Below, one piece after another: positions 2,198 to 59,167 of a DNA stretch of 64,000 nucleotides. Every line of letters begins with the position of its first letter. Position 1 is the stretch's first letter. A model generated the notes under the pieces. That model saw nothing but the letters and a program-made list of their open reading frames with translations, was not told the origin of the DNA and made no database searches. The translations under genes and the position numbers were made by a program. The stretch lies in NCBI GenBank assembly GCA_020619395.1, contig GCA_020619395.1_4860.1. One strand, written 5' to 3'. The stretch is from a phage.

Positions 2198-2677
2198 TTA
2201 ATTAATCAGGTGTATCACAACGTCTGGCGTTACTACGTCGACCAGACTGCGATAGATTTTATCGTAACTGAACTTGTTGAAGAAGAAACCCGCTTCGTCG
2301 ACAATAACCAAACCGAATTTCTCGTAGCCGGATACACCAGCACCCGTCGCGCGTTTCCAACCCTCAGGCAAGTAGTTACAGTGCACGGTCAGCCATCCGA
2401 TCCCGGCAGCCTTTTCATGGAACTTCTCCACCACTTCGTTTCGTAACGCTTCGTTGTGAACCAGATACAGAACGCTGCCGTGGAACTTTGCTGACATATC
2501 AACAGCGTGTGTTGTAACGCCTTTCTGACGACCAGCGCCATAGCGGATAGTGCGGAACTCACTCAGTGCAATATGCGGTAAAAAGCCACAGCTACGGGCT
2601 TCATCGGAGTCCAGTTCGATAAGACCTTTGGACAGTTCTTTTACTACGGCACGATAATCGATCCGAGTTATAGACAT
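2198..2677 (-). CDS. hypothetical protein
   Basis: 159-aa ORF; contains VIVDEAGFF-like segment but no P-loop. Confidence 0.5.
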   Translation of the reverse strand: MSITRIDYRAVVKELSKGLIELDSDEARSCGFLPHIALSEFRTIRYGAGRQKGVTTHAVDMSAKFHGSVLYLVHNEALRNEVVEKFHEKAAGIGWLTVHCNYLPEGWKRATGAGVSGYEKFGLVIVDEAGFFFNKFSYDKIYRSLVDVVTPDVVIHLIN

Positions 2678-6579: not shown

Positions 6580-6627
6580 TATAGTTCTCCTTGAGGTCTT
6601 TTACATACGTACAGCCGTGGCCGTAAA

Positions 6628-10722: not shown

Positions 10723-11253
10723 TTAGAGATAGTGTTCCACTATCACTTCTAACTCGCGGAAGATATGTGCGGTTTGATTAAACAGCGTATCCTGTTCGGG
10801 TGTTTGTTTATCAAATGCACGCTGATACAGTTCTAACATAGCGAAGACTGTGCGCAGTTTATCGCGCGCGACTTCAGGATCGGATGCACCGAAATAATGA
10901 TCAAGCCATCGTGGTTCTGAACTCTCTCCTTTTCTATCGATTGCCTCAGGCAACTCTAACCAACGTTGATTGGGAATGTTGCTACTGGATACACGGTTAT
11001 ACTCAGAAATGAAGAATTCCAATCGCTCCACCAACGTGTCAAAATCTCGAATACGTAATTCGAGTTGTCCACGCAATGAAAAAGGAAGGTATTCTTTCCC
11101 ATTATATTCCAGAGGCTCTGTAATGAGTTCTAAGCCCACCATCACTCTGTGTAGGGTGTTATGGGTATTCTTATGAAACTCAGCCTCCAAAGAGCGTCTG
11201 CGAGCTTCTACAGCCTTACGACGCAGGAGTGTTGAAAGCCATTTAAAAAGCAT
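10723..11253 (-). CDS. hypothetical protein
   Basis: 176-aa ORF. Confidence 0.5.
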   Translation of the reverse strand: MLFKWLSTLLRRKAVEARRRSLEAEFHKNTHNTLHRVMVGLELITEPLEYNGKEYLPFSLRGQLELRIRDFDTLVERLEFFISEYNRVSSSNIPNQRWLELPEAIDRKGESSEPRWLDHYFGASDPEVARDKLRTVFAMLELYQRAFDKQTPEQDTLFNQTAHIFRELEVIVEHYL

Positions 11254-11280
11254 AGGTGTTATCCTATTATGAGATGTTGT

Positions 11281-11305
11281 CTCAGATAGATAATATCTGT
11301 CTGAG
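11281..11305. promoter_or_regulatory. palindromic intergenic motif CTCAGATAGATAATATCTGTCTGAG (candidate operator/promoter element)
   Basis: imperfect 25-nt palindrome in divergent intergenic region; core AGATAATATCT recurs at 19832, 28925 and, degenerate, at 35864, 41449, 37685. Confidence 0.4.
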
Positions 11306-11329
11306 TTCTTTTTGAGATGAGGTTATCCC

Positions 11330-11800
11330 ATGAGCGAAGAAGTGAAATACCAAGCGTTCGACGGAGATGTGGACAACGAAGATTCGCTTCTCCGCCAAAC
11401 ACAACAGCTACGCGTTAAGCTCGTCACAGATATGGTGAACGACGGTGAAGTACACAAAGACTTAAAAGCCGTCGACCGAATCGAACGCCTAATCAACGGC
11501 ATCGACAAACAGGTCATGACGAAGCGGAAAATTAAAGCTGCTGAGAAAGGCGCTGAGGCGACTCAAGATTTGGCCAACAGTTTAAACGGCTTCTTAATGA
11601 CCCGTGCAGGCGTTGGTATCAAACGTCACGACGATGAAGAAGATTTAAATAACGGATACCAACCCACCGTCCCACAGATTGCCGCAGTACGGCCTCCGAA
11701 AGAAGGTGAGTTGGCACCAGTAGGCGAAAAGATTGACGTTGACCAGATCATGGCGTCTGCGTTTGCGAGTCGTCGTCCTGCTGATGACGACGAAGACTAA
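11330..11800 (+). CDS. hypothetical acidic protein
   Basis: 156-aa ORF, lone plus-strand gene; ATG preceded by motif region. Confidence 0.5.
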   Translation: MSEEVKYQAFDGDVDNEDSLLRQTQQLRVKLVTDMVNDGEVHKDLKAVDRIERLINGIDKQVMTKRKIKAAEKGAEATQDLANSLNGFLMTRAGVGIKRHDDEEDLNNGYQPTVPQIAAVRPPKEGELAPVGEKIDVDQIMASAFASRRPADDDED

Positions 11801-12476
11801 ACAGCGCAGTGTCCTTTACGTCAGTACCGACGTATTGAGCAAGAAAACGGGTGGACTCCTTAAAGGGGTTCACCTTATCTCTTTTTATTTGCGCGATGGC
11901 TTCTTCCGTTAATTCGCTGGTCAGCATACTCGGTCGGGTAATGGTGAAATCCGGAATCGGTTTCTGGAAATGGCCCGCGTGTTGTTCTATCCACGGGTAC
12001 CAGTCGTACATTATCCAACCGTCCCACGCCGAAGCAAGTCGTCCTGGTGTAAGATCGCTGTGAGGAATAACAACGACGTCTACTTGCACTTCGTTATAGT
12101 AGTAACGCAGTTCTTCCAAAAACGCATGACGTTCTTCATCATCGAGATCAGCGTACGGCCACAGGTTAAACGTTAAGACTGGTCGCTCGATAGGAGCGTG
12201 CATCTGTATCGTCATTAACATTGCCTGTACTTCGTTCTTTAGCGTAAGCAACATTTCTGTTGGCTGCGCGTTCTGCAACGCGCGTTTATCACGCTCCGCG
12301 AACTTTTTATTCCAGTCCTGAATTCCTACCACTTCGGCCCACGCATCCGTGAACCGCATCCGATACACTTCTAAATCAAGCTTCTCTAATACATCAGGCT
12401 GCAACACTTTCGCCCAACCAATTCGTGTATCGAAGATTGTGTCGATATCGACTAAGAAACGGCGTCCTAATCTCAT
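11748..12476 (-). CDS. hypothetical protein
   Basis: 242-aa ORF; 3' end overlaps convergent plus gene by about 53 nt. Confidence 0.5.
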   Translation of the reverse strand: MRLGRRFLVDIDTIFDTRIGWAKVLQPDVLEKLDLEVYRMRFTDAWAEVVGIQDWNKKFAERDKRALQNAQPTEMLLTLKNEVQAMLMTIQMHAPIERPVLTFNLWPYADLDDEERHAFLEELRYYYNEVQVDVVVIPHSDLTPGRLASAWDGWIMYDWYPWIEQHAGHFQKPIPDFTITRPSMLTSELTEEAIAQIKRDKVNPFKESTRFLAQYVGTDVKDTALFSLRRHQQDDDSQTQTP

Positions 12477-13141
12477 TCCGGGCGTCCTAAGTTGTTACCG
12501 ATGTGCATTGCTTTAAAGTACGAAGACCATGTACGCGGCGCTTTTGAACTGGTACGCTCAGCCCCTTCCAGGTTGATGCGACCTTTACCGGTTTGCCGTA
12601 GCGATTGATAGAACGCACGTTGTAACGTATCGTTACCACCACGCGCCCACAGGAACTCCTGGAGCGTTGAGTCGTGTCCATCCGAGTACATGATGTACGC
12701 TTCTGGAAACGAAACACCCGAAGCTTTGGAAGGCCCTACTACCTGACCTGAGAGTTTATCGCGGACTTTATCGTTCTTCGCCACCGCCATTTTCTTCTCT
12801 TGCATCTGCGTCTGGCGACGTGCAGGTAGCCGGAAGACTAAATGGGGGTAACGGGTACGCTGTAGGATACCGGTTTTCGGTTCCGTGAGCCACAGGCGCT
12901 GACACAAGTTCAGTCCCATCGCTTCGCAAATTTTAATATTGCGCATATGGTCAATTTTGACCTTGCCGCCAGTTGGGTTGTAAACAGGCAACCCTTCGCG
13001 CAGACGATTGAACTCTTCGTCAGACATTCGTGAGAAAGCGCGCTTGGCAGCTTCCGCGTTAATCCCGGTCGGGTCAACTAAGTTCAGTAACTGTAAAGCA
13101 TAAGCTTCTGCTTTTTTTCGCCGTGCCGGGTCTAATCTCAT
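12473..13141 (-). CDS. hypothetical protein
   Basis: 222-aa ORF, 4-nt overlap with downstream gene. Confidence 0.5.
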   Translation of the reverse strand: MRLDPARRKKAEAYALQLLNLVDPTGINAEAAKRAFSRMSDEEFNRLREGLPVYNPTGGKVKIDHMRNIKICEAMGLNLCQRLWLTEPKTGILQRTRYPHLVFRLPARRQTQMQEKKMAVAKNDKVRDKLSGQVVGPSKASGVSFPEAYIMYSDGHDSTLQEFLWARGGNDTLQRAFYQSLRQTGKGRINLEGAERTSSKAPRTWSSYFKAMHIGNNLGRPE

Positions 13142-15268: not shown

Positions 15269-15366
15269 CAGGTGTTACCTTTTTGCAGTTCTCGTACATA
15301 AGGTTTGGGTGATACGTAAAAGACTTACTATGTAGCCCAATCCCTTATATATTCGAGGTTGATAGA

Positions 15367-16122
15367 ATGAATGTTAATCCACTTGCAGCGTTGTCGGGCT
15401 TTGTTGCCAAAGCATCCACGATTCTGCCTAAAGCCTTTAGCGGCTCTCAACAGGAACTCGCGCTGACCACCTATGACGACATGTCTGATGTGTCCAAGTG
15501 GATGCAGCAAGAGAAGTTTTTAAACTTTACCGGAATGCTTGTACCCGTACCTCCGGGCTTCAACACGTATGTGATGGACCACATAGAACGGTTGGAATCT
15601 GTATGGGCTGTGCTCCAGAAGATTCAGGAAGGGGTTTTAACACCCATCGATAAACGTTTCGGCGCGATGACCCATGACCTGGGCATGTTAACTCTGCCGA
15701 TTGGGTTTAAGTTCAAAGACCTGAACTACCCGCTGAAAAATATCAATCCAAAAGATCTGGTTGAGAAACTGGCGAAGTCGTATACCAACAACGTCATTGA
15801 CCAGCGTCCGATTGAAAAGACCTACCACAGTGCAGGCGAGATCGATGTTGCATTTAATCGTGCCAAAGCGCTGAACCTGGAAGTGACTAAGAAACTTCAG
15901 AAAAGTATTGATCGTACAGTTGAAAGCATCAATGTCTCTGTGGACATTATCTCTAATTCACAAGTCCATCCTAATGTGGCGGCAGAGTTAGTGAAAATGG
16001 CTGACATGGGTGCTGACTGGGTTGAGCTGTTCGGACTGTTTATGAAACAGATTAATGAACTGACAGAATGCCTGAACGTAACCGGTGATCGCCTCAAGAC
16101 CCTGAAAGCAAACAAAAAATAA
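15367..16122 (+). CDS. hypothetical protein
   Basis: 251-aa ORF on plus strand followed by strong terminator. Confidence 0.55.
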   Translation: MNVNPLAALSGFVAKASTILPKAFSGSQQELALTTYDDMSDVSKWMQQEKFLNFTGMLVPVPPGFNTYVMDHIERLESVWAVLQKIQEGVLTPIDKRFGAMTHDLGMLTLPIGFKFKDLNYPLKNINPKDLVEKLAKSYTNNVIDQRPIEKTYHSAGEIDVAFNRAKALNLEVTKKLQKSIDRTVESINVSVDIISNSQVHPNVAAELVKMADMGADWVELFGLFMKQINELTECLNVTGDRLKTLKANKK

Positions 16123-16135
16123 AAAAAATAAGCAT

Positions 16136-16176
16136 TACCCACTCCCCTTATGGGAGTGGGTAGGCTTTATTTTATT
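16136..16176. terminator. bidirectional rho-independent terminator (CCCACTCCC/GGGAGTGGG family)
   Basis: 9-bp GC stem, 5-nt loop, T-runs on both sides; between convergent genes. Confidence 0.65.
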
Positions 16177-17095
16177 TGCATTTAGAACCGTTGACAAATG
16201 TCGGCGGTATCCATTTCAAAATCTTTGTCCGATTCCCGTCACGTGGACCGAGCCAGTAAGTACGCCAGTGTGCACGACGCATATGCGCACATCTGCTACC
16301 TTGTGTTCTTTTCTCCGTATCAGTATCAAATTCTTCAAGATACTCGCTTTGTGCTTTTACGGTGGAGAGGACAGTCGGTTTAGATTTTGGTTCAATGTGG
16401 TAATTGGCGATACGTTTCTTTCCAGTTAATTGTCTCAGTTTGACGGGTGTAGGGTTGTGCGGGATCAGTGAGAATGTAAACATGGTAGCGCCGACAATGC
16501 GTAACGTTTTCTCATTGGCCGGCGTACCAGTTTCCGCCACACGCAAGGATACAAAGCCGTCACCCACGTCCACGATTTCAAAGGTTTCCCCCTCGATACG
16601 TTTTCCAAAAATCATCATTGTTAAACAATCTTTCCCTTTAAACATTCGCCGACCGAAAACGTAAGTCTTTTCTTGGATACCGATATCTTTAGCGCGATAG
16701 CACACTGAAAAGGAGACGGCCCAACCGGGAATCTTGTCTATCCAGCTGCGTGGTATCTCAGTGAGAACGTCGCCAAGTAGAACTTGTTCAAAAATATTAA
16801 GATCAAATTCCATCTGGATACCCCCGTATCGCCAGCCGTAGGCAAGAGACAGGAAGTCTGCGGTGCATTCTTCGGCGAAGCAGTTCTTTAGGAACGCCTC
16901 AATCGGTATAAAGTGCTGGCCTATCTCGCCACAATGGGCTATTGCGTATTGCTCGATGATGGCGGGATCTCCACTTCTGGATTTCACACGTTCGTCGATT
17001 TTAGTAAGACCGTTTAAGAAATTACTCGGGGATTCGCGCATACCGATTACATCTACATTTACCGATTCTGCCAAATCAAAAAGAAAGCTGTCCAT
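16172..17095 (-). CDS. hypothetical protein
   Basis: 307-aa ORF. Confidence 0.55.
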   Translation of the reverse strand: MDSFLFDLAESVNVDVIGMRESPSNFLNGLTKIDERVKSRSGDPAIIEQYAIAHCGEIGQHFIPIEAFLKNCFAEECTADFLSLAYGWRYGGIQMEFDLNIFEQVLLGDVLTEIPRSWIDKIPGWAVSFSVCYRAKDIGIQEKTYVFGRRMFKGKDCLTMMIFGKRIEGETFEIVDVGDGFVSLRVAETGTPANEKTLRIVGATMFTFSLIPHNPTPVKLRQLTGKKRIANYHIEPKSKPTVLSTVKAQSEYLEEFDTDTEKRTQGSRCAHMRRAHWRTYWLGPRDGNRTKILKWIPPTFVNGSKCK

Positions 17096-17117
17096 TTAAT
17101 ACTCCTTTAGATTAATG

Positions 17118-17160
17118 GTCGATTAAAATAAAACTACGGACACTCCGAAGAGTGTCCGTT
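17118..17160 (-). terminator. rho-independent terminator
   Basis: stem cggacactc/gagtgtccg with cgaa loop, T-run on minus. Confidence 0.6.
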
Positions 17161-19062: not shown

Positions 19063-19797
19063 TCAGTAGTTTAGTTTCTCAGCGACTTCTTTACGGATGC
19101 GACACATCACCACCATCGCACCATTCGGAATTTGGCTCACGCAGTTATCCGTGTAAAACTTACCTTCACACAGATAAAAGTCCAGACACATGGCATCGGT
19201 CAGCTCGTGCCACAGGGTGCCGAAACCATACTGCCAAGGGCCGGAATGAACGACATCGTAATCGCCATCAGTTATGCCAAATGCGGCAGTAGCGGAAGAC
19301 CACAGTGTTGAGGAAGTGGTATAAGTGTCATACCAGTAACCGAGCAGACGATGGTTACGACGTATCTCAGCTAACCGCTCGTACATTGGGATGAATACAT
19401 CTTCCACCTGCGTGACAAAATCAGCCAGCATCAACTTTTCCGTGAACCACTCGATCCACGCAAAGATTTGTTCTTCAACGTCTTGTTGGCTTAACCCCGT
19501 GGAAGTAATGCCTTCTTCGTAGGTGTAACCTTCGTAGACATCAACAACATTAATCTCTACATGTTCTAGCGTGAACAACCGTTCGGTGTTGATGCAGTCG
19601 TACATCTCTTGTAACCACGCAGTGAAGACTTCTATACAGACGTTGATGGCTGTGTACTTGAATTCATCGCGCAGTGGATACCACTGTGGGTTATCCTTTA
19701 GTTCGTTCTTCGCGAACGCGGGCCAATGCTTTTCGAACAACGCTTCAAAGAACTGGGGCGTGAGGTTTAAAAGCACTGGCACTTCGACTTTAAGCAT
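19063..19797 (-). CDS. hypothetical protein
   Basis: 244-aa ORF, Trp/Tyr-rich. Confidence 0.5.
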   Translation of the reverse strand: MLKVEVPVLLNLTPQFFEALFEKHWPAFAKNELKDNPQWYPLRDEFKYTAINVCIEVFTAWLQEMYDCINTERLFTLEHVEINVVDVYEGYTYEEGITSTGLSQQDVEEQIFAWIEWFTEKLMLADFVTQVEDVFIPMYERLAEIRRNHRLLGYWYDTYTTSSTLWSSATAAFGITDGDYDVVHSGPWQYGFGTLWHELTDAMCLDFYLCEGKFYTDNCVSQIPNGAMVVMCRIRKEVAEKLNY

Positions 19798-19830
19798 CGT
19801 GAATAAATTCTCCTTAAGGTTACGTCCCTG

Positions 19831-19850
19831 TAGATAATATCTATCTCAGA
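19831..19850. promoter_or_regulatory. palindromic motif TAGATAATATCTATCTCAGA
   Basis: perfect palindrome AGATAATATCT about 33 nt upstream of the minus-strand start at 19797. Confidence 0.4.
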
Positions 19851-20651
19851 TTACTTTAAGAGATGCAAGAAGCGTGCTGCCTGTTCTGTAAAGTGAAAAT
19901 ACTCGATGGTATCAGGTTCGTCCGAGTGAATGTCATCCGGGTCCAGCAGGTAGCCCGAGATATCATCCGTTAAAACCCAAGCGTCTCCCTGCAGGAAAAT
20001 ACCCATCGGTTTTTCTACCACGGACATCACCAAGTCGGAATAAGAGTTACCTTCTGCTACCTTTACAATGTCTTCACACGGGTCAACAATATACAGGTTG
20101 CAGAGACTACGATCTTTAAGACTGCGATGAAACATCGCTCGATCGTACCAAATAACCTGAGAACAATTATCTTCGTCACCCGCCACATCGACCAACTCTG
20201 TCCAGAAACGATGTAAGAACCAGTTCAACGCACCGGTTATTAGCTCGTTCGGTTTCAGCATTCTAACGTGTTCGTCGTACAACTCTTCCATTGTCCAGAT
20301 TCGACAATGCTCACGATCGATTGTCGGTAGCGGAGGTATTTGCGGCGGGACTTGTTTAGGCATCGGTTCATCACATCTTGCGTTGTAACGCGCAATTGTT
20401 TCGGTAACCAGCTCTGCCACAACATCACAAGCCGCTTCAAATCCCCACTTGTACAACACGTCGTAATCTTCCATGGGCGCAGCACCAAACTCACGGTTCG
20501 TTGCCATCCACGACATCCATCCGTATTGCTCCACACAGTTAATCAGACTTTGTGTGTGGAGCGTGAGCGATTCACTCACGACTCGCAACATGTTACACCT
20601 CTTCTTCTCGCAGTATGCGACGGTTTGCGTAATACGCACACCACAACCCAT
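19851..20651 (-). CDS. hypothetical protein
   Basis: 266-aa ORF. Confidence 0.5.
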   Translation of the reverse strand: MGCGVRITQTVAYCEKKRCNMLRVVSESLTLHTQSLINCVEQYGWMSWMATNREFGAAPMEDYDVLYKWGFEAACDVVAELVTETIARYNARCDEPMPKQVPPQIPPLPTIDREHCRIWTMEELYDEHVRMLKPNELITGALNWFLHRFWTELVDVAGDEDNCSQVIWYDRAMFHRSLKDRSLCNLYIVDPCEDIVKVAEGNSYSDLVMSVVEKPMGIFLQGDAWVLTDDISGYLLDPDDIHSDEPDTIEYFHFTEQAARFLHLLK

Positions 20652-23937: not shown

Positions 23938-25317
23938 ATGTATGATTTACAAGGCTTTATTCAAATAGCGGCTCTGATTGATAATGGCCCTGGCAACACC
24001 GCTCCGGTAGGTGAGTTGTCTGAGCTGTCATATTCGTTCGCTAAAAGCAAGCAGTATTTTACTAAAGAAAATCTGCAGGTGGAACTGGTTGCTTTTACTT
24101 CTAAACGTGACGAGTTGCCTATTAAGACCCCGGCCGTCTTTAGCGACCACGTTCTTACTGTTTCCCAATGGATCTACCAACAGTCTATCCTGGGCAACTT
24201 AAGAAACGACGAAGTTGAATTCCAGCGTTTGCTGTTGGGGCAATTTAATAGCGTCATCAGCGGTGTTCAGTCTGGCGCGATGATTCAGACTAACAGTAAC
24301 TGGTTCCCACGTTGGGTCAGTTGGAAACTTGAAACCACAGCAGATAAAGTCGAAGACCCATCTGATGTGAATAACCAGATTATTCTCTGGTTTGCTGATG
24401 AAGATTTCAATCAGGACTATACCGGATTTGAAATTGAAGTCCAAATGCCGATATTACCGGTTGATACTTTCTTGGCTGTGAAATCTGTAGTCGAAAAGGC
24501 AATGGAAGGGTTCAACCTTCCGGATCACCATAATAAGATTAACGAATTAGCTGACGGTTATCCGTACACTAGCCTGATTACTAACATCTATACTTGGCAC
24601 GACCAGGAAGACTTTGATTCCACCTTACCGATACCGATGTCGGCTATCATCTACGGACGCGCGGGTCGTAACCCGAGCAGGATTAAACAAGCGTTACGTG
24701 ATTACATTTTGGCAAACTCCAGTTTTACTGTGGCGTTGGGTGTCAAGGTGTTCCCAGAAATCTTTACGACCACCAAGTTCACAATTGTTCCCGGTTGGTC
24801 AATTCGTGGGATTCCAAATGAGGAAGATGTTGCGGCATTATACTCGCCGATTCTCCCATATGATTTCTGGGTCAAAGCAATCTCCCGATTTGGGGAGTGG
24901 ACTGTTCAAACCATTACGGAAAAAAATAGTGGAGCAATCTCAACTCCAACTACCGATGTAACGGATTTACCGTCCATCTATAAATCACTAAACGCTGTAG
25001 TTATCGCAGGCCCTGAAAACGATTCACGCAAAACGACCCTGCACGATACGATTCCCGACTACGCATTAATCGGCACTAACAATGCAGATATTGCGAGAAT
25101 GTCGAAGAAAACCACCGAGTGGCTGGACTTGTTCTTCCAGGCGTTAATCGCAGCGGAAGAGTATCACCCACATTCCACCCCGCTGGATATCGTGAAGCTC
25201 GTAGACGACGTCGATCCTAACGTTTACTTCTACGTCTTCGAATTCGATAACGTGGAGTATCGTGTCTTGGCCCGCAAAGCTGTTTGGGATGTCCCTGCGG
25301 CAGAGCCAGAAGCCTAA
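23938..25317 (+). CDS. hypothetical protein
   Basis: 459-aa ORF on plus strand; ATG with AT-rich leader. Confidence 0.6.
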   Translation: MYDLQGFIQIAALIDNGPGNTAPVGELSELSYSFAKSKQYFTKENLQVELVAFTSKRDELPIKTPAVFSDHVLTVSQWIYQQSILGNLRNDEVEFQRLLLGQFNSVISGVQSGAMIQTNSNWFPRWVSWKLETTADKVEDPSDVNNQIILWFADEDFNQDYTGFEIEVQMPILPVDTFLAVKSVVEKAMEGFNLPDHHNKINELADGYPYTSLITNIYTWHDQEDFDSTLPIPMSAIIYGRAGRNPSRIKQALRDYILANSSFTVALGVKVFPEIFTTTKFTIVPGWSIRGIPNEEDVAALYSPILPYDFWVKAISRFGEWTVQTITEKNSGAISTPTTDVTDLPSIYKSLNAVVIAGPENDSRKTTLHDTIPDYALIGTNNADIARMSKKTTEWLDLFFQALIAAEEYHPHSTPLDIVKLVDDVDPNVYFYVFEFDNVEYRVLARKAVWDVPAAEPEA

Positions 25318-27521: not shown

Positions 27522-28115
27522 TTACGCTTCGGCCTCAAAGAACGGCTGGTTCGGTACCACTGCATATTCGAGCACGAAAAGATGTTCTGGGGCATCTTCT
27601 GCTCGCCACAGTTTGTGGCACGTTGCCAGTTTTTCCAGGATGGTCAACCAGCTGAGCTGGCAGAAAGCACGATCGCCGAAGAACAGTTTCTGCAGTGCAA
27701 TCGACACATCCATATACGCCTGTTTGAAGTCGAGTTCTTTATCGTAACCCGCCGACTGTCGCCACGTCAGCACGAAGCCTGCTTCGGTTTCGTTAATTGC
27801 TGGACGTAAACCACAAATCCACATCAGCGCCAGATTAACGTTCCAGTCGAATTCGATACCTTCGTCTTCGTCATCACCAAACGCCGCGTTTAACGCGTCG
27901 TAGAAACCGTGGTTCTCTGCGAACCATTCGCCGTACTCAACGTAGACAGGTGCTTCGACAGCTTCCCCATCGGCTTCACCGATAGGACGCTCAACGTAGT
28001 TCGGATTGGTTTGAACGTGTTCCGCACCCGCGCGAATCAGTTCGTAAACGTCTTTGGCGGTGATTTGTGCGGCTGTTTTAAGACCTGGATACCAGGGGCG
28101 TGTTACGAGTGTCAA
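27522..28115 (-). CDS. hypothetical protein
   Basis: 197-aa ORF. Confidence 0.5.
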   Translation of the reverse strand: MTLVTRPWYPGLKTAAQITAKDVYELIRAGAEHVQTNPNYVERPIGEADGEAVEAPVYVEYGEWFAENHGFYDALNAAFGDDEDEGIEFDWNVNLALMWICGLRPAINETEAGFVLTWRQSAGYDKELDFKQAYMDVSIALQKLFFGDRAFCQLSWLTILEKLATCHKLWRAEDAPEHLFVLEYAVVPNQPFFEAEA

Positions 28116-28834
28116 AGCAATGCTCCTTTCATGATAGTGTTATTTGCCAGTAATGTACCGGCCGCAGGTGATATTTTGGTGTACAGCGTATCCCAGATTT
28201 TCTGAAGTTCGGCGACGCGTTGGTCGTGGTCTTCCTTCGCAAAAGCAAGCTGACGTGTTTCAGCTTTCGGTGGTGTCATTTTCGCACCGTAGAATGCTGC
28301 GTCTTTTCGGTAGCTGGCCATCCAGCGTTTCCCGACCGGTGATTTCTTTTTAATCATCGCAACAGCAGCACCCTCACCGAAGCGGTAGCCTAAAGCGATT
28401 TCGGCTGTGCTCGGCTTGCGTTTGAGTTGTTTTGTCAGATGATCCTCGATGTGTTTCATGTAAACGGCAGCAAGCTGTACAGCATATTTCGGTTTATTAA
28501 GGTCCGCATTCTTTGGGATGTTAAGTTGTTTCCCATACAGACGTATCATGGAGCGTTTAGTGCCTGTCGTCATTTGGACAACACTACTAGCACTGCTCGT
28601 TTTATTCTTACCCACGTTTTTATTAAAACGGGATTCACGATAAATGGTGGTCGCGAGCATCCCGGCATGTACGCCTTGTTTTCGAGATGCGGTGACGATG
28701 AGAGGTTTAATCTCATTGAACTGGTCCTGGATAAGGACGAATTCTTTTTGGTGTTTGTTACTGGTGGTCTGGTAAGAAGCGTTGCTGTTGAACGTAGTCA
28801 TTGCTACCAGAAGAAATAAAATGGTGCGAAACAT
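28112..28834 (-). CDS. secreted protein, possible SLT-like lytic transglycosylase
   Basis: N-terminal signal peptide (MFRTILFLLVAMTTFNSNA); YRESRFN...SSVVQMTTGT loosely fits the SLT catalytic E-S...Q motif. Confidence 0.4.
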   Translation of the reverse strand: MFRTILFLLVAMTTFNSNASYQTTSNKHQKEFVLIQDQFNEIKPLIVTASRKQGVHAGMLATTIYRESRFNKNVGKNKTSSASSVVQMTTGTKRSMIRLYGKQLNIPKNADLNKPKYAVQLAAVYMKHIEDHLTKQLKRKPSTAEIALGYRFGEGAAVAMIKKKSPVGKRWMASYRKDAAFYGAKMTPPKAETRQLAFAKEDHDQRVAELQKIWDTLYTKISPAAGTLLANNTIMKGALL

Positions 28835-28924
28835 GGATGTATCTCCAAACGGATTTATACTTTTCCGTTCCCAATCCGGGAAGACGGCGCGGACGGCATT
28901 GTGCTCCTTTGTAATGTGCCCTGA

Positions 28925-28940
28925 TGATAATATCTATTTG
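28925..28940. promoter_or_regulatory. palindromic motif TGATAATATCTATTTG
   Basis: GATAATATC palindrome core in intergenic region upstream of 28834. Confidence 0.35.
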
Positions 28941-29434
28941 AAACTATTTGGGATGATTTTCTCTGCTTCCCTCAGCAGGGTGTCCGGTAAATAGAATCGA
29001 TAAGTCTGCTCCGTGTGCTGTAGTCGTTTCTGTAAGTGTATAAAGATTTCCAATCGCTCATGGTAACGTAACCAACCGTTAGCCATCCCTAGGGGCGGTA
29101 TCGCAATCCCTCCTTCTAAGTCTTCCCCTAGTCGCGCCAGCGCATCAATGCCGGACGTGACATAGTAAATCTGCGATTTATAGCGAAAATGGGTTTTAGT
29201 AGGAAGGAGTATTACCCCTTCCTCAGGATAACAATAGACCTCACCGATAACGATTTGCTCTTTACGGCATTTCTGGCGATAGTCATTATAAAGCGATGGG
29301 AAGCGTTCTCGGCACGCCAAGGCAATGCCCCTTCCCATTGCACCAACGCAGTTAACTGTAACGACCTTGAAGCGCTCAGGCGCGTTAAACAAGTCGTGGG
29401 AGATAACGGCCTCGTCGATCAGTTCGAGTGACAT
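28934..29434 (-). CDS. macro-domain protein (OARD1/TARG1-like ADP-ribose processing; candidate anti-defence)
   Basis: VNCVGAMGRGIALACRERFP matches the macro-domain G-x-G-I-A signature. Confidence 0.45.
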   Translation of the reverse strand: MSLELIDEAVISHDLFNAPERFKVVTVNCVGAMGRGIALACRERFPSLYNDYRQKCRKEQIVIGEVYCYPEEGVILLPTKTHFRYKSQIYYVTSGIDALARLGEDLEGGIAIPPLGMANGWLRYHERLEIFIHLQKRLQHTEQTYRFYLPDTLLREAEKIIPNSFK

Positions 29435-29633: not shown

Positions 29634-30056
29634 TTAGCTATTCCTTTTCACCCAGGCTTGTACCGCTGACTCGAAACCTTCGTGTTCGATACCGAGTCGT
29701 TTCATTGCCAACATAGTGTTGAGGCTATTCGTAATTTCTTCACGGTAGCGATGGTCGTCCATCTTACGCCAACACTTCTCCGGGTCAACACCTAAGCATT
29801 GGAGTAGATACGCCTCACGCACCATACCAGGCCGCCAGAATTTAGGGCGGGTAATCGCGATTTCAATCATGGGCGTCATGTCCAATGTGTGCGCGAGAAT
29901 ACTAACCGGCGTTTCCCCAACTTTATCACGTAGCGCTAAACGTAACCACCACTGAACATTTGCTTTGGTTTCAGGCAACAGGTCGTAGAATAAGGCTGTT
30001 TCTTCTTCTGATAAATGATCGTATAGTGATTTTGTTTCGCGAATAGCGGTAACCAT
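29634..30056 (-). CDS. hypothetical protein
   Basis: 140-aa ORF. Confidence 0.5.
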   Translation of the reverse strand: MVTAIRETKSLYDHLSEEETALFYDLLPETKANVQWWLRLALRDKVGETPVSILAHTLDMTPMIEIAITRPKFWRPGMVREAYLLQCLGVDPEKCWRKMDDHRYREEITNSLNTMLAMKRLGIEHEGFESAVQAWVKRNS

Positions 30057-30067
30057 TTTAATGCTCC

Positions 30068-30331
30068 TTAGGGTAAAGTTGCCTCCCAGTCGTGGTGGTG
30101 AGGCTCAGGCAGCGTACCAAGCGCTGCTTTAATACACGTACTCAGCGGAGTATCATCGAACGCAACACGCCCGATAGTACCCACGTTGATGTGTTTAGGA
30201 TTTACGGGTAAGAACTCCTTCACCCGCTCGTACTCAGCCCAACAGACATCGGTGTTTAAAGCTGAAAACCCAGGACGGTGAAACATAAATAGCACTCCTC
30301 GCGTAAAAATACCCCACTCATAGTGAGGCAT
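30068..30331 (-). CDS. hypothetical protein
   Basis: 87-aa ORF. Confidence 0.4.
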   Translation of the reverse strand: MPHYEWGIFTRGVLFMFHRPGFSALNTDVCWAEYERVKEFLPVNPKHINVGTIGRVAFDDTPLSTCIKAALGTLPEPHHHDWEATLP

Positions 30332-34481: not shown

Positions 34482-34529
34482 GTTTGCCTTCTAATGAGAA
34501 AGTATTAGTCGTTCATATCCAAAAGGTCA

Positions 34530-34567
34530 TGCGTAAAAAAGAAGAAATGGAACCCCGAAGGGTTCCA
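34530..34567 (-). terminator. rho-independent terminator
   Basis: stem ggaaccc/gggttcc with cgaa loop, T-run on minus. Confidence 0.55.
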
Positions 34568-35258: not shown

Positions 35259-35825
35259 TTACAGCCCCATATGCATAAGGGAAATGATTGGGACCTTACG
35301 GCCACGAATCATTGCATATGGTTCGTACATTTGTGCGTTAGTTTCGAATAACTCACAGGCCGGAATACGGTCACCGGTGGAAAGTTGTAAGACTTCGATT
35401 TGGTCGCCCCAGAAATTGTTTACTAATACGTGGTCGACGGTGTTGTCTTCACGACCTTCAGGGGTTTTGCAATAAGTGGCTGCGGCGTACCAACCTTTGC
35501 GGTATACTTCATAACCCGCATGAAGCATCCGATAGTACGGACGTAGCTGTGGGGCATTCAACGCAGCATCTAACCATTCGCTGTGGATGCTGTTAATCAA
35601 TACGGTTGCTTCTGCTGGCCAGTCGGTGCGATTGAGGGTTAACTCGCCTAACAACTTCAACTTCCAGCCAGTGGAAAGAATGGCACGGGTACGTTCGGGA
35701 TTGACGTTCATCTGAGTAAAGAAAGAAGAACGGGTATCGTCGAGAATGTTCATGTTCATTTGCTTAATCCTTACGAGTAATAGTCGATTAAAAAGGACCC
35801 TGCGGCTAAGTGTTGGGGAAATCAC
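35259..35825 (-). CDS. hypothetical protein
   Basis: 188-aa ORF. Confidence 0.5.
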   Translation of the reverse strand: MISPTLSRRVLFNRLLLVRIKQMNMNILDDTRSSFFTQMNVNPERTRAILSTGWKLKLLGELTLNRTDWPAEATVLINSIHSEWLDAALNAPQLRPYYRMLHAGYEVYRKGWYAAATYCKTPEGREDNTVDHVLVNNFWGDQIEVLQLSTGDRIPACELFETNAQMYEPYAMIRGRKVPIISLMHMGL

Positions 35826-35863
35826 CGCAGGGCCAAAGTGAGATGGGTCGTCATCTCACGTTA

Positions 35864-35878
35864 TAACATCTGTCTGAA
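35864..35878. promoter_or_regulatory. degenerate copy of intergenic motif (ATAACATCTGTCTGA)
   Basis: matches ATAACATCTATCTG at 41449 and the AGATAATATCT family. Confidence 0.3.
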
Positions 35879-35888
35879 AACTTTTCGG

Positions 35889-36718: not shown

Positions 36719-37210
36719 TTATTCTGAATAGTCGATTGTTTTGATGGTTTCCATACCGTAGTACATAGCGATGGAGGCCAGAGTTTTGGTATCCGGTCGC
36801 TGTACAAAACCGGCCCTGAAATCTTTGCTGCAAATTTTCTCCACTGATAGTTCATCACGATTAGGGATAAGCCATAACGCGTCACCATTGTGACGGTCGA
36901 CTGCACCCCACCAACCACCTGGGCAATCTTTATCGCCCGGACGGTGTACGATAGCGACACGACCGTTGAAGGATATGTCAACTACACGACACTGTTTCTT
37001 AAGCAGCTTACGCGCATTGCACCAGAACGGCTTATCATTAAGATTGATGGTGCGGGTATATGCTGGAATGCTGCCGTTAATACTGCCCTGGAACCCGCTG
37101 AATTCGTCAGCGCGTGCCTTAGAAATCCGTAGCCCAACAACAACTGACATCAACAGCACAGTAAAAAGCACCACTTTGGCCAAGTGGCGATTAACGTTAT
37201 TGCATTTCAT
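36719..37210 (-). CDS. exported Cys-containing protein (paralogue family member 3)
   Basis: likely start at internal MKCNN (ORF track extends to 37255); signal/anchor ...SKARA; motif FWC-x8-C-x-VV ... DCPGG. Confidence 0.5.
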   Translation of the reverse strand: MKCNNVNRHLAKVVLFTVLLMSVVVGLRISKARADEFSGFQGSINGSIPAYTRTINLNDKPFWCNARKLLKKQCRVVDISFNGRVAIVHRPGDKDCPGGWWGAVDRHNGDALWLIPNRDELSVEKICSKDFRAGFVQRPDTKTLASIAMYYGMETIKTIDYSE

Positions 37211-37598
37211 TTTTGATATCTCCACGATTGAGGGTGATGCGACCGACGAGCACATCGTTGTGATAAAAGCTCACAGCAACCATATTCGGTAATTCCAGTG
37301 GTGACACACTGACCGAGGTGACTTTTGGTTGATTGCACGATATGTCAATCAACCGCTGATACATTTTCAATTTCTTATCAGCGATAACCAGCCCTGTGCA
37401 GTTCTTACCGTCCGTCAGTCTGTAGATTTGTAACTGTTCGACCTCACGCATCAGTTCCGGTTTTTCATTCGGCGCAATGCCATAATCCGAATCAGCTGAT
37501 GTGTATTCAGTCACGTCTGGCTTATCGAAAGCATAAGTTGCTGCAATACCACATGCGGCCAGAACTACTACTGCTTGTAAGAACTTCTTGATAGTCAT
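37197..37598 (-). CDS. putative lipoprotein
   Basis: N-terminal signal with lipobox VLAACG; 133 aa. Confidence 0.5.
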   Translation of the reverse strand: MTIKKFLQAVVVLAACGIAATYAFDKPDVTEYTSADSDYGIAPNEKPELMREVEQLQIYRLTDGKNCTGLVIADKKLKMYQRLIDISCNQPKVTSVSVSPLELPNMVAVSFYHNDVLVGRITLNRGDIKNEMQ

Positions 37599-37615
37599 GT
37601 TTTACTCTATAGTCG

Positions 37616-37653
37616 ATTGGTTTAAAAAAGAATAGGCTACCCGAGGGTAGCCA
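37616..37653 (-). terminator. rho-independent terminator
   Basis: stem ggctacc/ggtagcc with cgag loop; T-run on minus. Confidence 0.55.
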
Positions 37654-37703
37654 GTTGAGTTAATCTCTTAACTCTCACCTAGGTAATATATATCTGAGAT
37701 ATT

Positions 37704-38300
37704 TTACAATGTGAAGGTTGTGTTAAGAATACGAAAACCCAATGCTCGCTTAGCGATTTGCATATTTGCAGGCGTGAAGTCCACCAGTTTGATTTGAACG
37801 ATCGATAAATCGTAAAGCTTGTGAAGCACTTCGATTTTGTGTCGCCAATCTGTTTTTTGGTGCAGCTCTATCGTCGTCGGTAACTCACCCAGTCTCGGCA
37901 ACTGCGCCCCAAGTAAACGATGATGGACTTTACCGTTTATAGTTGGGGTGCCTTCCGTGACCATCAGTCGCGCATCGATGTAGTTATTTCGCTTAGCGTA
38001 CTCCATAAAAGTTTTGACATTTATCTTTTCCTCGTATAGAATGCTGCGAAAGTATTCGTAAATGATGTGTCCTGCCTCCCTACCGCTTTCCGAGTCTGGA
38101 ATAACCTTATCGATGAAAATCGCAGAGACCACTTCGCTCCCACGCGAATGCATTGTAATGACCCTATCCCCGTGCTCTGCGGCAGTTAATAATCCACTCA
38201 CATCAAGCCCCACCGGAAACAAGCCACGACTACGCATTACGTGCAGGTCTTCTAACTTGTTCTCTTGCAGTCGTAAAATACGTTCTGTCATATACCACAC
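37704..38300 (-). CDS. hypothetical protein
   Basis: 198-aa ORF. Confidence 0.5.
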   Translation of the reverse strand: MWYMTERILRLQENKLEDLHVMRSRGLFPVGLDVSGLLTAAEHGDRVITMHSRGSEVVSAIFIDKVIPDSESGREAGHIIYEYFRSILYEEKINVKTFMEYAKRNNYIDARLMVTEGTPTINGKVHHRLLGAQLPRLGELPTTIELHQKTDWRHKIEVLHKLYDLSIVQIKLVDFTPANMQIAKRALGFRILNTTFTL

Positions 38301-40112: not shown

Positions 40113-41387
40113 TTACAGTAAACGCAAATCTGCGACAAACAACAGTTGACGGCCGTACTTAGTCACTTCTTTCCAGCCATTGTTAACACCCCATTTGATG
40201 ATAGCGTCGTAATGCCACTGTTTCAGTTCGCTGGTACCCCACGCATCCCGTACCGCCTTCGCCGACATCAAATAAGCAGGTTCGGCAACGGAGCGCATTT
40301 CAGAATCTGGCAGGCGAGAAACAACGGAACTGTTCACACGCTGCAGCGTTCCTGACACCTGTATCCAGAACGCAGGCGATATTGTATTTGTCGGTCGACA
40401 GTCAAATACCCAGGCCGTGTCATTTTCACTGGCCGGGGTCTTACGCTTATAGATGCTTAACAGTATTTCCGATTGGATAACTTCGCGGAAAACGTTAAGA
40501 AGGGTGACGACCTTCTCATTAACCACATCGCCTTTTTCGACCTTATGGTAATCTTTAAGGTTTCCGGGCTCTGCTATCGGCATTACTGACCAAACATCGG
40601 CGTCTAACATCTCACCGAAATAATGGTTAGCGTTTTCATCAGATGTCCAGAACATCGTATTGCCATCATTGGCTATGGTGGCTAGATCACGCAGTGCTTC
40701 CTTGGTGTCTTCGTCAATTTCCACAGGTTTGGCTGCTTCACGCGGTGCGTTTTTCGTGTAGAATCTGCGCTTGCTTACCGCTCTATTCCATACGGTAGTA
40801 ATTTGGTACGCAGTGAATTCGGGGAACTGCTGCACCAACACTTCTGCATCAACATCAAGCCGCTCTGAATTAAAGTTTTGTAATTTCTCATTAAACCCTG
40901 TATTCAGCTCTCCGCCAGTCCACCAGTTGCTGTCGCTTAGTGCAGGCATGTCAGGTGTTAACTCGAACACCGGTTTATCGATCAGCAGAGTAAGAATGTA
41001 GTGCACCCACATTGTGTTACCCTCAGCAATGGCGCGTCCGATGTTTTGATTACCCGATAGGTAAGCTACCCGCGAATCCCCTTCGAACGTCATGGTTAAT
41101 TCAACCCACGGCGCTAAGTCAGAGACGTGGTGGCCTAAACGACACTTTACTTCCCCTTTGTCAAGCAGACGCTTTTCGACAACGGTTGAGAGCTTTTGTG
41201 GCAGGCACGCACAATCCTGCCACGTTACGTCGCTGTAAGCCATACTCCGAACACTGAACTGCATTCCCAACAGTACAATTGTGTTAGTAATTACTGCATT
41301 AAAGAATGCTTCTTTCGGTGTCTGGTAAACTAATTCGTATTCGTTATACATTTGGTATTTCCTTTTAAAGTACACTAAAGTGACCAA
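40113..41387 (-). CDS. hypothetical protein
   Basis: 424-aa ORF (alternative start at MYNEYE, about 41351). Confidence 0.55.
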   Translation of the reverse strand: MVTLVYFKRKYQMYNEYELVYQTPKEAFFNAVITNTIVLLGMQFSVRSMAYSDVTWQDCACLPQKLSTVVEKRLLDKGEVKCRLGHHVSDLAPWVELTMTFEGDSRVAYLSGNQNIGRAIAEGNTMWVHYILTLLIDKPVFELTPDMPALSDSNWWTGGELNTGFNEKLQNFNSERLDVDAEVLVQQFPEFTAYQITTVWNRAVSKRRFYTKNAPREAAKPVEIDEDTKEALRDLATIANDGNTMFWTSDENANHYFGEMLDADVWSVMPIAEPGNLKDYHKVEKGDVVNEKVVTLLNVFREVIQSEILLSIYKRKTPASENDTAWVFDCRPTNTISPAFWIQVSGTLQRVNSSVVSRLPDSEMRSVAEPAYLMSAKAVRDAWGTSELKQWHYDAIIKWGVNNGWKEVTKYGRQLLFVADLRLL

Positions 41388-41448
41388 AAACTGTTACTAA
41401 AGAACAGTTGGTGTTTAAGCGACTGTGGGTTTATACACAATGCTCACG

Positions 41449-41464
41449 AAGATAACATCTATCT
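41449..41464. promoter_or_regulatory. degenerate copy of intergenic motif (AGATAACATCTATCTG)
   Basis: intergenic, about 60 nt upstream of the minus-strand start at 41387. Confidence 0.3.
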
Positions 41465-41472
41465 GTAAAAAC

Positions 41473-41790
41473 TTAGTATACAACCAGTACGATGCAGTCA
41501 TCGATAGCCAGATTCAGTAATGAGTAGTCGTTACTTAACCGCTGGTAACGCATCCCTTTTTCAAACTGACTTAATTGTTCAGTCGGCATGGCGTATACCG
41601 CGCTTTGCACTACTCCCGTAAACAGTTCGTCGTAGAACTGGTCTACTTCCCCGACTTTGTAAAAGCGCATTCTTTGATTGTTAGCAAAGACGCTGTCTAG
41701 CTTCCCGTTACTGGCTTTCTGTACCGCAGTAAAGGCACTGTCTGCATCATTACGCTCTAATGCACTTTTAATGGTTTGAAATAAAGACAT
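41473..41790 (-). CDS. hypothetical protein
   Basis: 105-aa ORF; last gene of the minus-strand block. Confidence 0.45.
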   Translation of the reverse strand: MSLFQTIKSALERNDADSAFTAVQKASNGKLDSVFANNQRMRFYKVGEVDQFYDELFTGVVQSAVYAMPTEQLSQFEKGMRYQRLSNDYSLLNLAIDDCIVLVVY

Positions 41791-47700: not shown

Positions 47701-48430
47701 GTTCATGCACCGTATTTCTGTACTCGTCGCACGCACCGCAGGGCGTATCACCACTCCAGGCGGCGTGAGCACGTATGCGGGAATCGCGGTTAACTACGGA
47801 CGTGCTGCACAGGTTGTTATTGGCTTGAACGGCGTTACTGGTTCCGGCCATGACTGGACGGCACTTAACCCATCGGTGCGTTTCAGCCACACGCGAACAG
47901 CGGACGGTATTTCGTTCGAGGGAACGATTAACATCGATTCCAAAACGATCAACTTTGAGCTGACGCTAACCGCGACAACAAAGACGCTGAAATACACCTT
48001 GCAGTCGACCGGCGAGTCGTGGACTGAGGATTTGTCTACCCGTCTCCGTCCTGACTATATCGACTTGACGAAACTGATTACCGATCCGAGTACGCCGATT
48101 TATCACGGCGTGGGTGGTTTGTTTAGTTCCGACACAGAAGCGCGTTTGACTTACGCTAACCTGAACACGATGCCGACAAAGAATCGTTATTACGCCACGT
48201 TCCTTGACTATGCGATTAACTATTCCGGCTTAAACCGCGCAAGATTCTTTACTGGCGTGGTGGATGCAGGTTTAACGATTAATGAGATGAACAGCGCGAT
48301 GTGCAACTATTCATACAGTTCGTTCCGACCAGTGGATGCAGGTAAAATTCCACTGGTGGCACACCCATCCAAGATGATGACGTTCAATCCGAAAAACACG
48401 TCAGCTCGAACACTTATTATTCGTGATTAA
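44717..48430 (+). CDS. tail fibre protein 1
   Basis: 1237 aa; SD aaggag; N-terminal domain shared with next three genes; T4 gp34-like fibre repeat TTTEFGLVQFGT and HTHTP motif. Confidence 0.75.
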   Translation: MAVVPDPHYQEPGNMQTGEAVTPIGTKYRMLFPAHAPFYTTSLVVKSGGKKLTLGDDYVITHAYVTGMARTGHVCHGGVWITNPKYQSGFTLDYHAIGIGEATAEMIAAEREANKDRYPVDCQWDNVIGDLYFPPVDIKFDWENWRGESELMEAIVAVGAKLGEAISRVDPIARNTLDLQYRAGVTLITSEQYATYDGTGGYTYNASRRRYSLSYQNTTFDAYSLAVKHRLPSIPPETTLNPGELIDWMLCYANGGTSILRLQLKQRAIYLTLTTAIGSGSSNYSYTLTTGLTDTELAGEVEFSVVRREGNGVYDITVKTSKQTVNYSFNVDNPPSEFAPGYQKTDVAKWLKFKSDVNLNWWAGENDYVQIRSLPGAPSPDVNNDVYQLLVKYHQIVDKLYRDAPAHTHVPRKDNPHRDSWGAIRALENNGIASDATLVYGKTQPQLTDYVNNLLPKLSTLANKLLRLPTAAQSINGTFGMKPGLTSITSAVGTDESEGVGAQFTVDPRVIRFIGRDSQTVNAGNNPITWQGGANQLILYPDSRGLEFNGKKLLDPTTVGPYLPGNESGGDGLFYGTSTATVTINGNGIQSVPFICTFVPPESDDLGLMAVRLLATEFGDREDLAATPALIKKLDQQFTGKLVAVKSYINDMPLTSSIYIDKTNFGLSNVQNVPDVQLPISPLQQAELDKYAFVGHTHTPAALGIKRATTTEFGLVQFGTAVDDATLALDGGEVIRQADAITEIEKVAKTVDSGASINIIRYGLPGTDIIENGITYTDWMVTIKANDYFVGREYKVPLSTFNLAELFPATHEDAEFGVYVDAAGDDGKYIIYENPNTAETETMTKIGSIITSETGVVFVEIRNVTRLGEFRELGEHVEDDNAHIRRGMSQAEFGFTYGTGGPVWSTGAPGTKRIDADWRYAQASSYTPMLKADYDPAADKWTFKTTSLSVADYRFVHNTFPMFQNNGITATWTPLTATADSVLETVIGCCHHSATFMHRISVLVARTAGRITTPGGVSTYAGIAVNYGRAAQVVIGLNGVTGSGHDWTALNPSVRFSHTRTADGISFEGTINIDSKTINFELTLTATTKTLKYTLQSTGESWTEDLSTRLRPDYIDLTKLITDPSTPIYHGVGGLFSSDTEARLTYANLNTMPTKNRYYATFLDYAINYSGLNRARFFTGVVDAGLTINEMNSAMCNYSYSSFRPVDAGKIPLVAHPSKMMTFNPKNTSARTLIIRD

Positions 48431-59102: not shown

Positions 59103-59167
59103 CTTGTTTACGAGCCGGACTATGTTTATGGACATAGTCCGCTCGTTCTACTTTTTAAGGAAGCGTA

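Follow-up and report, generated by a model that had tools for sequence, protein, structure and literature searches.

A directional intergenic element of an SPN3US-like jumbo phage and its correspondence to phiKZ-type early promoters

A nearly symmetric sequence of 25 nucleotides is located at 11281-11305 in a divergent gap of the phage DNA analyzed here (a stretch of 64,000 nucleotides, referred to as the window), and its inner part recurs in other intergenic gaps. This raises the question of what kind of element is repeated. The preliminary description, made from the letters of the window, had offered two answers, binding by a dimeric regulator or a phage-specific promoter class.

The window is SPN3US-like (Seoulvirus) jumbo phage DNA. 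It is approximately 97% identical to the reverse complement of positions 139,383-202,902 of Salmonella phage SPN3US, a 240-kb phiKZ-related jumbo phage of the genus Seoulvirus. Compared to SPN3US it contains an insertion of 1 kb at about 16.2-17.2 kb, and at 30069-30108 a segment of ~550 bp (~0.5 kb), corresponding to SPN3US 173,273-173,825, is deleted. The inserted DNA, absent from SPN3US, includes an ORF of 307 aa (16172-17095, minus strand) with no Pfam domain, which is preceded by its own terminator-like hairpin, the sequence AATCGACCAT and a ribosome-binding site. SPN3US has genes for two multisubunit RNA polymerases, a virion RNA polymerase (vRNAP) that is packaged and a non-virion RNA polymerase (nvRNAP) that is synthesized after infection. 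The vRNAP subunits gp42, gp218, gp240, gp241 and gp244 were identified in SPN3US virions, gp218 (222 aa) being the C-terminal beta subunit (PMC5105663).

Recurrence and composition of the element

The 11-nt sequence AGATAATATCT occurs exactly at 11288-11298 and 19832-19842. These are two matches compared to 0.01 expected, and none of 100 shuffled sequences reaches two. If one mismatch is allowed, the number rises to six in the window compared to 0.71 expected. The third copy at 28925, which had been listed together with the exact ones, is real (28925-28935, TGATAATATCT) but deviates at one position and is not perfect; the copy reported near 41449 is found at 41450-41460 (AGATAACATCT), also with one mismatch. 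The more degenerate copies near 35864 and 37685 are recovered by a weight matrix of 45 columns, which was built on SPN3US by iteration and applied with a threshold of at least 21 bits. This matrix adds no further locus to those listed originally: six intergenic loci hold seven copies, which score between 21 and 48 bits, while the next best score in the window is 15.7 bits. The observation as such is confirmed and highly significant. In the following, sites are named by their anchors, i.e. 37696, 11303, 19847, 41465, 28940 and 35876 on the minus strand, and 11283 on the plus strand.

11281..11312, minus strand: predicted early-promoter copy, 41.9 bits, core CAGACAGATATTATC at 11303-11289, predicted start G 11283
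10723-11253, minus strand: ORF behind this copy, first gene of a long minus-strand block
11274..11305, plus strand: reverse partner copy, 29.9 bits, core CAGATAGATAATATC at 11283-11297, predicted start G 11303
12473-13141, minus strand: gene of the vRNAP beta C-terminal subunit (SPN3US gp218), annotated "RNA polymerase beta subunit"
19825..19856, minus strand: predicted early-promoter copy, 39.6 bits, core GAGATAGATATTATC at 19847-19833, predicted start G 19827
28918..28949, minus strand: predicted early-promoter copy, 35.3 bits, core CAAATAGATATTATC at 28940-28926, predicted start G 28920
35854..35885, minus strand: predicted early-promoter copy, 21.4 bits, core CAGACAGATGTTATA at 35876-35862
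37674..37705, minus strand: predicted early-promoter copy, 48.2 bits, core CAGATATATATTACC at 37696-37682, predicted start G 37676
41443..41474, minus strand: predicted early-promoter copy, 39.0 bits, core CAGATAGATGTTATC at 41465-41451, predicted start G 41445

In agreement with the preliminary description, every site of the window lies in a gap between ORFs, and the distance from the end of the 15-nt core to the following start codon is 32-99 nt (30-90 nt had been given). The 11303 site, whose SPN3US counterpart is located at 191601 (39.7 bits), is accompanied by the plus-strand partner at 11283, which faces ORF 11330-11800. The 19847 copy lies 35 nt upstream of ORF 19063-19797. At 28940-28926 the core overlaps the stop of ORF 28934-29434, and the gene that follows (28112-28834) encodes an SLT transglycosylase (Pfam SLT domain, E=2.8e-6). 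The 35876 site has a spacer that is one base short, with the conserved G at 35857, and the next ORF starts at 35759. The best score of the window belongs to the 37696 site, a member of a phiKZ-like subclass upstream of ORF 37197-37598. The 41465 site (SPN3US counterpart at 161918) is followed by an ORF with its ATG at 41351. Most of the first genes downstream of the motif are without Pfam domains.

The palindrome itself is only part of the conserved sequence. The arms of the 11-nt unit, described as a perfect palindrome, do pair in the manner 5+1+5, but the centre is unpaired and the reverse complement reads AGATATTATCT. Similarly, the 25-nt sequence CTCAGATAGATAATATCTGTCTGAG is a near-perfect palindrome with a non-complementary pair (T7/G19) besides the centre. 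While the core does recur, the unit that is conserved is much longer and asymmetric. The word common to the window sites on the gene strand is CAGAYAGATRTTATC plus flanks; with up to three mismatches it is matched 14 times compared to 4.0 expected, and the seven true sites carry zero to two mismatches.

If the conserved G is counted as +1, the gene-strand consensus can be written as A(-29)A-N4-TTTCAGATAGATATTATCT-NNgt-G(+1)Ag, with approximately 38 bits after small-sample correction, or in full as A(-34).T(-32)c.A(-29)Aaaaa TTT CAGATAG ATATTAT C T..gt G(+1)Ag. It consists of A(-29) with an A-rich stretch from -28 to -24, TTT at -23 to -21, CAGATAG at -20 to -14 and an extended "-10" box, A(-13)TATTAT(-7)C or, in a subclass, TATATTAC, which is followed by a variable spacer of 4 nt and the conserved G. 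None of the 24 forward sites of SPN3US deviates at A(-29), A(-13), T(-12), T(-10) or A(-8), and T(-9) is present in 23 of them.

The 25-nt palindrome at 11281-11305 results from two copies in a divergent gap, a strong one on the minus strand and a weaker one on the plus strand, which overlap in a back-to-back arrangement. The spacer of the forward copy happens to read TATCTG, so that its complement recreates CAGATA and thereby a copy on the plus strand. As this second copy arises from the complement of the first, it has an A in place of T(-10), a position without exception in the 24 forward sites; the upstream A/T tract is absent from it as well.

Distribution in SPN3US and conservation in relatives

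A genome-wide motif scan, which had been proposed as a check, was run on the whole SPN3US genome (264 annotated genes, 93.6% coding). With 26 sites of at least 21 bits, a next best score of 16.2 bits and at most 14.9 bits in shuffled genomes, the sites are clearly set apart; scores below the threshold are mirror "shadows" of true sites. The expected intergenic enrichment was found, 24 of the 26 sites being located fully within the non-coding 6.4% of the genome. The same number of copies (24) have the orientation of the gene that follows, and their cores end 31-266 nt ahead of its start codon; the remaining two are reverse partners in divergent gaps. We further report a copy of 35.5 bits at SPN3US 25225-25239 that is located within the ACQ60_gp236 coding sequence, 266 nt ahead of the next gene, and may be an internal early promoter.

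Other searches were less informative. The k-mers enriched in upstream regions mainly reflected the ribosome-binding site, and a text search of the literature for the motif string returned unrelated primer sequences only. The 15-mer AGATAGATATTATCT has at least 120 matches in IMG/VR, which are mostly single and scattered and therefore uninformative on its distribution; they include a few contigs of SPN3US size (~224-243 kb).

The genes behind the copies are of particular importance, as all three nvRNAP gene clusters of SPN3US are preceded by the motif. Copies at 15613 and 15706 precede ACQ60_gp244/243, and gp243 matches the phiKZ nvRNAP protein gp55 (E=8e-43). A copy at 28968 precedes gp232/231 by 31 nt; gp232 has an Rpb2_6 domain (Pfam), and gp231 is the original gp35, the nvRNAP beta-prime subunit (PMC5105663). 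Copies at 72485 and 72683 precede gp190/189, where gp189 is the original gp77, an N-terminal fragment of nvRNAP beta (PMC5105663). No copy was found directly upstream of any vRNAP gene or annotated virion-protein gene in SPN3US, and the window scan revealed no early motif upstream of the vRNAP beta-C gene at 12473-13141 (minus strand).

Three genera with about 68% DNA identity (Seoulvirus, Erskinevirus and Machinavirus) retain the motif at corresponding positions, while the flanks diverge. Relatives with the motif are STsAS, pEa_SNUABM_29, SPAsTU, Asesino (Erskinevirus) and pSal-SNUABM-04 (Machinavirus), at approximately 67-81% DNA identity. In STsAS (from Salmonella) and pEa_SNUABM_29 (from Erwinia) it is retained in the gaps of the 11303, 19847, 28940, 35876 and 37696 sites, and in Erwinia phage Asesino in the same gaps except that of 35876; these three genomes are 67-74% identical to the window. 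Scores in the three relatives amount to 40-42 bits for the 11303 site, 25-27 bits for the 28940 site and 41-46 bits for the 37696 site. The counterpart of the short-spaced 35876 site in pEa_SNUABM_29 has normal spacing and 37.8 bits. When the 19847 site is aligned across five genomes, ATAGAT-TTATCT and the ribosome-binding region show no variation, whereas the end of the upstream gene is unalignable.

In SPN3US two early promoters are predicted in tandem, ~90 nt apart (15613-15735), ahead of the gene that immediately precedes the one for the N-terminal part of nvRNAP beta-prime. In all three genera each copy of this pair before ACQ60_gp244 reaches 34-44 bits. The divergent gene on the opposite side of the pair has an invariant TTCCTATGTGG approximately 21 nt before its ATG. 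A homology of ACQ60_gp244 with the nuclear-shell protein gp54 of phiKZ was considered and rejected, as BLASTP gave no similarity (E=0.67); an equivalence in "chimallin position" is not claimed here, since it rests on gene order only.

Comparison with known promoters and rival readings

The kind of element described here is already known for phiKZ-related phages. Early motifs were reportedly predicted across this group by Lavysh 2016 (Virology 495:185), and Ceyssens 2014 (J Virol) is said to be the primary paper on phiKZ. For the comparison we re-derived the phiKZ consensus from the first 50 kb of the phiKZ sequence. This part contains seven intergenic sites of the form aaaaa..TTTaAgAt.TATATTAC-6N-G, which can also be written as aaaaaaTTTgAGAttTATATTAC-6N-G. 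The SPN3US matrix applied to phiKZ ranks five of its sites on top with at least 18.7 bits, compared to a shuffle maximum of 16.7 bits. One of them lies 80 nt before PHIKZ054 (30.4 bits), a gene reported to have the early motif at its primary start (PMC8244752).

Both elements are in the same register: the A-tract from about -30 to -24, TTT at -23 to -21, AGA at -19 to -17, and TATATTAC or TATTATC ending at -7/-6, followed by six bases and a G. A G exactly 6 nt after TATTA(T/C) is present in 23 of 24 SPN3US sites and in all seven phiKZ sites examined. With 28-32 per genome, phiKZ early promoters are similar in number to the 24-26 sites of SPN3US, and they are likewise intergenic and co-oriented with genes. 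In both phages a copy precedes a gene pair that includes the homologue of the N-terminal part of nvRNAP beta-prime (gp54/gp55 in phiKZ, ACQ60_gp244/243 in SPN3US). The difference lies in the box. The main class of Seoulvirus reads CAGATAGATATTATCT, by which the palindrome AGATA-T-TATCT is created, in contrast to the non-palindromic gAGAttTATATTAC of phiKZ; only a Seoulvirus subclass of seven sites, CAGATATATATTACY, keeps the phiKZ-type TATATTAC.

The early promoters of phage AR9 were mapped by dRNA-seq as AAATATATATTAT-(6N)-G+1 at 41 sites, and starts in phiKZ and phiR1-37 are located 6 nt after the element (PMC5312081). AR9 shares the box (TATATTAT or TATTAT), the spacing of 6 nt to a conserved G, the initiating base in AR9 (TATATTAT-6N-G+1), the very high information content and the place upstream of early operons. 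It differs in having DNA that contains uracil, in its position outside the Chimalliviridae and in a plain A/T run upstream without the CAGATAG block. According to a review, all RNAP-encoding jumbo phages have a predictable and highly conserved A/T-rich early motif of ~10 nt centred near -10, which was confirmed wherever transcripts were profiled (PMC7598289). Given the base-for-base correspondence to phiKZ and AR9, the motif is the Seoulvirus version of a known element. The "phage-specific promoter class" of the preliminary description agrees with this correspondence and with an element that is directional, almost exclusively intergenic, set at a fixed place ahead of ribosome-binding sites, located before nvRNAP genes and conserved across genera.

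Its second suggestion, an operator at which a homodimeric phage DNA-binding protein represses or activates the neighboring genes, alone or on top of a promoter, would draw on the dyad AGATA-N-TATCT with outer TCA...TGA. Indeed the consensus is partly two-fold symmetric (TCAgatAGATA-T-TATCTnngTGA, 9 of 13 mirror pairs complementary), the site at 11281-11305 is a near-perfect palindrome over 25 nt, and the downstream gene ACQ60_gp165 is annotated as an HTH DNA-binding protein. However, complementary pairs are as frequent in the 24 sites as expected from the columns (e.g. 13 compared to 12.3, or 20 compared to 20.3), which argues that there is no selection for pairing as such. The information is also lopsided: positions -20 to -14 carry 0.8-1.6 bits each and their mirror positions -4 to -1 only 0.0-0.6 bits, so that -18 to -16 are strongly conserved opposite the nearly free -4 to -2. 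The upstream A/T tract and the G-A at +1 are found on one side only, and all 24 forward copies uniformly face the downstream gene. The TATATATTACY subclass (7 of 24 sites) keeps three of five inner palindromic pairs, and the phiKZ counterpart is non-palindromic. The asymmetry, the pairing at expectation, the subclass and phiKZ together do not support a symmetric dimer operator, which we consider very unlikely. The original interpretation was therefore half right, the promoter being supported and the dimeric regulator not.

Even if the element is a promoter, an enzyme other than the injected vRNAP might read it. For a middle or late promoter of nvRNAP it could be argued that thymidylate synthase, MazG and an SbcC-like protein, which are encoded downstream of copies, could equally be middle genes. 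But the nvRNAP genes themselves are located behind the motif, and another enzyme must therefore read it first. Moreover, the known nvRNAP promoters are unlike the motif, with a bare TATG in phiKZ and AACA-6N-TA/G in AR9 (PMC7598289), and a separate motif described below, TTAC-N15-TATG, is a better match to the nvRNAP type and is found before the vRNAP beta-C operon, leaving little probability for this reading. A host sigma-70 promoter appears highly improbable. TATTAT at -12 to -7 could serve as the -10 hexamer, as it matches TATAAT in five of six positions at the canonical distance from the conserved G, and sigma-70 promoters with -10 or extended -10 boxes have an A/T-rich hexamer at the same place. 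Here, though, both TGn and a -35-like hexamer, which in a sigma-70 promoter is 16-18 bp away from the -10 hexamer, are absent, and a sigma-70 scan calls none of the seven window copies. Sigma-70-like sites are not enriched either (16 compared to 21.5 expected, and 13 compared to 14.9). T(-12), T(-10) and A(-8) are invariant, while -11 and -7 vary: the strictest sigma-70 positions are the least conserved ones (A(-11) in 19 and T(-7) in 17 of 24 sites), in contrast to the highly conserved -20 to -13. The ~38 bits of the Seoulvirus element are spread over ~35 bp, which resembles promoters of phage-encoded polymerases more than those of sigma-70. In addition, phiKZ development is independent of the host RNA polymerase (PMC7598289). 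Finally, the palindrome could form an intrinsic terminator or another RNA hairpin, and a terminator scan does flag 11281-11305 on the plus strand (a stem of 11 pairs followed by TTCTTTTT). Yet both genes flanking this site begin at the gap and none ends there, whereas an intrinsic terminator has a G+C-rich hairpin and a T-run where a transcription unit ends. The T-run here corresponds to the minus-strand promoter's own A-tract, read from the complementary strand, the other six copies have an A/T-rich stem of five pairs or none, and no Rfam family matched anywhere in the window. We regard this reading as practically negligible.

A related question is whether 11281-11305 could be a true bidirectional vRNAP promoter, in which two start sites, G 11283 on the minus strand and G 11303 on the plus strand, share one -10 box. 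The partner at 11283 scores ~23 bits in two other Seoulvirus genomes and 12 bits in Asesino, and its function is doubtful; we consider firing in both directions rather unlikely. If it did occur, the 5' ends of the two transcripts would be complementary over 21 nt, and the enzyme would tolerate an A at -10, an arrangement undescribed for jumbo-phage polymerases. Bidirectional promoters as a general feature were rejected, as the second reverse copy (SPN3US 15633, minus strand, 25.6 bits) reaches at most 12 bits in four relatives.

Proposed function, neighboring elements and significance

The authors therefore favor the early promoter: with high probability each site is read by the injected vRNAP, with transcription starting at the conserved G. 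We infer the identity of the enzyme, the exact start base and the early timing, where the assignment to vRNAP and to the early phase follows from the similarity to phiKZ and AR9 and from the position of the nvRNAP genes. In the literature searched we found no Seoulvirus transcript 5' ends, timing or polymerase binding. The functional unit would be a directional promoter of ~35 bp in a phiKZ-like jumbo phage (Chimalliviridae). The multisubunit vRNAP, packaged in the capsid and injected together with the DNA, would bind the element and initiate at the conserved G without host RNA polymerase or new protein synthesis. This could launch the early operons including the nvRNAP genes, after which nvRNAP would take over. 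The same logic is known from phiKZ and AR9, where the genes for the second polymerase depend on the injected one for their initial transcription (PMC7598289).

A further aspect concerns the predicted transcripts. Of the 24 predicted early transcripts of SPN3US 12 start with a stable hairpin (z below -1.5), compared to 16% of control windows, and in most of the 12 the stem begins at or within two bases of the predicted +1 G. Examples in the window are found downstream of 37676 and 35857 (both minus strand). This pattern agrees both with protective 5' stem-loops and with the start base assigned above. On the other hand, at three copies of the window the predicted start is separated from the gene by a terminator-like hairpin followed by a T-run. 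One of them (37635-37652, minus strand) was called by the scan and two more, at ~35795-35840 and ~41385-41405 (minus strand), were found by eye. These elements argue against the early-promoter reading, as they are unexplained if the promoter is meant to express that gene. Possible explanations are that the early transcripts undergo attenuation or yield short RNAs, or that such signals are ignored by the phage polymerases.

We also observed a second motif, TTAC-N15-TATG, which occurs nine times in the window compared to 2.0 expected, while none of 100 shuffles reaches nine.

2495-2517, minus strand: TTAC-N15-TATG copy (window scan)
6604-6626, minus strand: TTAC-N15-TATG copy (window scan)
15297-15319, minus strand: TTAC-N15-TATG copy (window scan), precedes the operon with the vRNAP beta-C gene
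29712-29734, minus strand: TTAC-N15-TATG copy (window scan)
30284-30306, minus strand: TTAC-N15-TATG copy (window scan)
34514-34536, minus strand: TTAC-N15-TATG copy (window scan)
48190-48212, plus strand: TTAC-N15-TATG copy (window scan)
55668-55690, plus strand: TTAC-N15-TATG copy (window scan)
59108-59130, plus strand: TTAC-N15-TATG copy (window scan)

The motif is specific in its spacing, with 24 TTAC/TATG copies in SPN3US at a spacer of 15 nt compared to 1-5 copies at spacers of 11-14 or 16-18 nt. Among these 24 copies 15 are intergenic, TATG usually being located 24-33 nt before the ATG. It combines the middle element of phiKZ (TAC near -22) with the late element (T-3ATG+1), and it is a candidate for the nvRNAP promoter class, which was described in a review as not bioinformatically predictable in these phages (PMC7598289).

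A third, conserved element, AATCGACYAT(TA), is located 20-28 nt before the start codon and just upstream of the ribosome-binding site.

35780-35789, minus strand: AATCGACYAT
36728-36737, minus strand: AATCGACYAT
37609-37618, minus strand: AATCGACYAT
17115-17124, minus strand: AATCGACYAT

It is found at ~13 SPN3US genes, mostly in predicted early 5' leaders and in three to four cases without an early promoter, and may represent a leader or translational element, or another promoter.

The present analysis adds no new principle, as both this kind of element and its bioinformatic predictability were already published for phiKZ-related phages. What it provides is a list of predicted early transcription units together with their start bases, with seven copies (six loci) in the window and 24-26 copies genome-wide. 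Such a list helps to annotate the many genes without known function whose products are probably the first to act on the host. It offers templates for testing the still unpurified vRNAP, and could be used for expression cassettes that work inside the early infection vesicle. For the phage itself, the motif marks the most likely starting point of its infection program.
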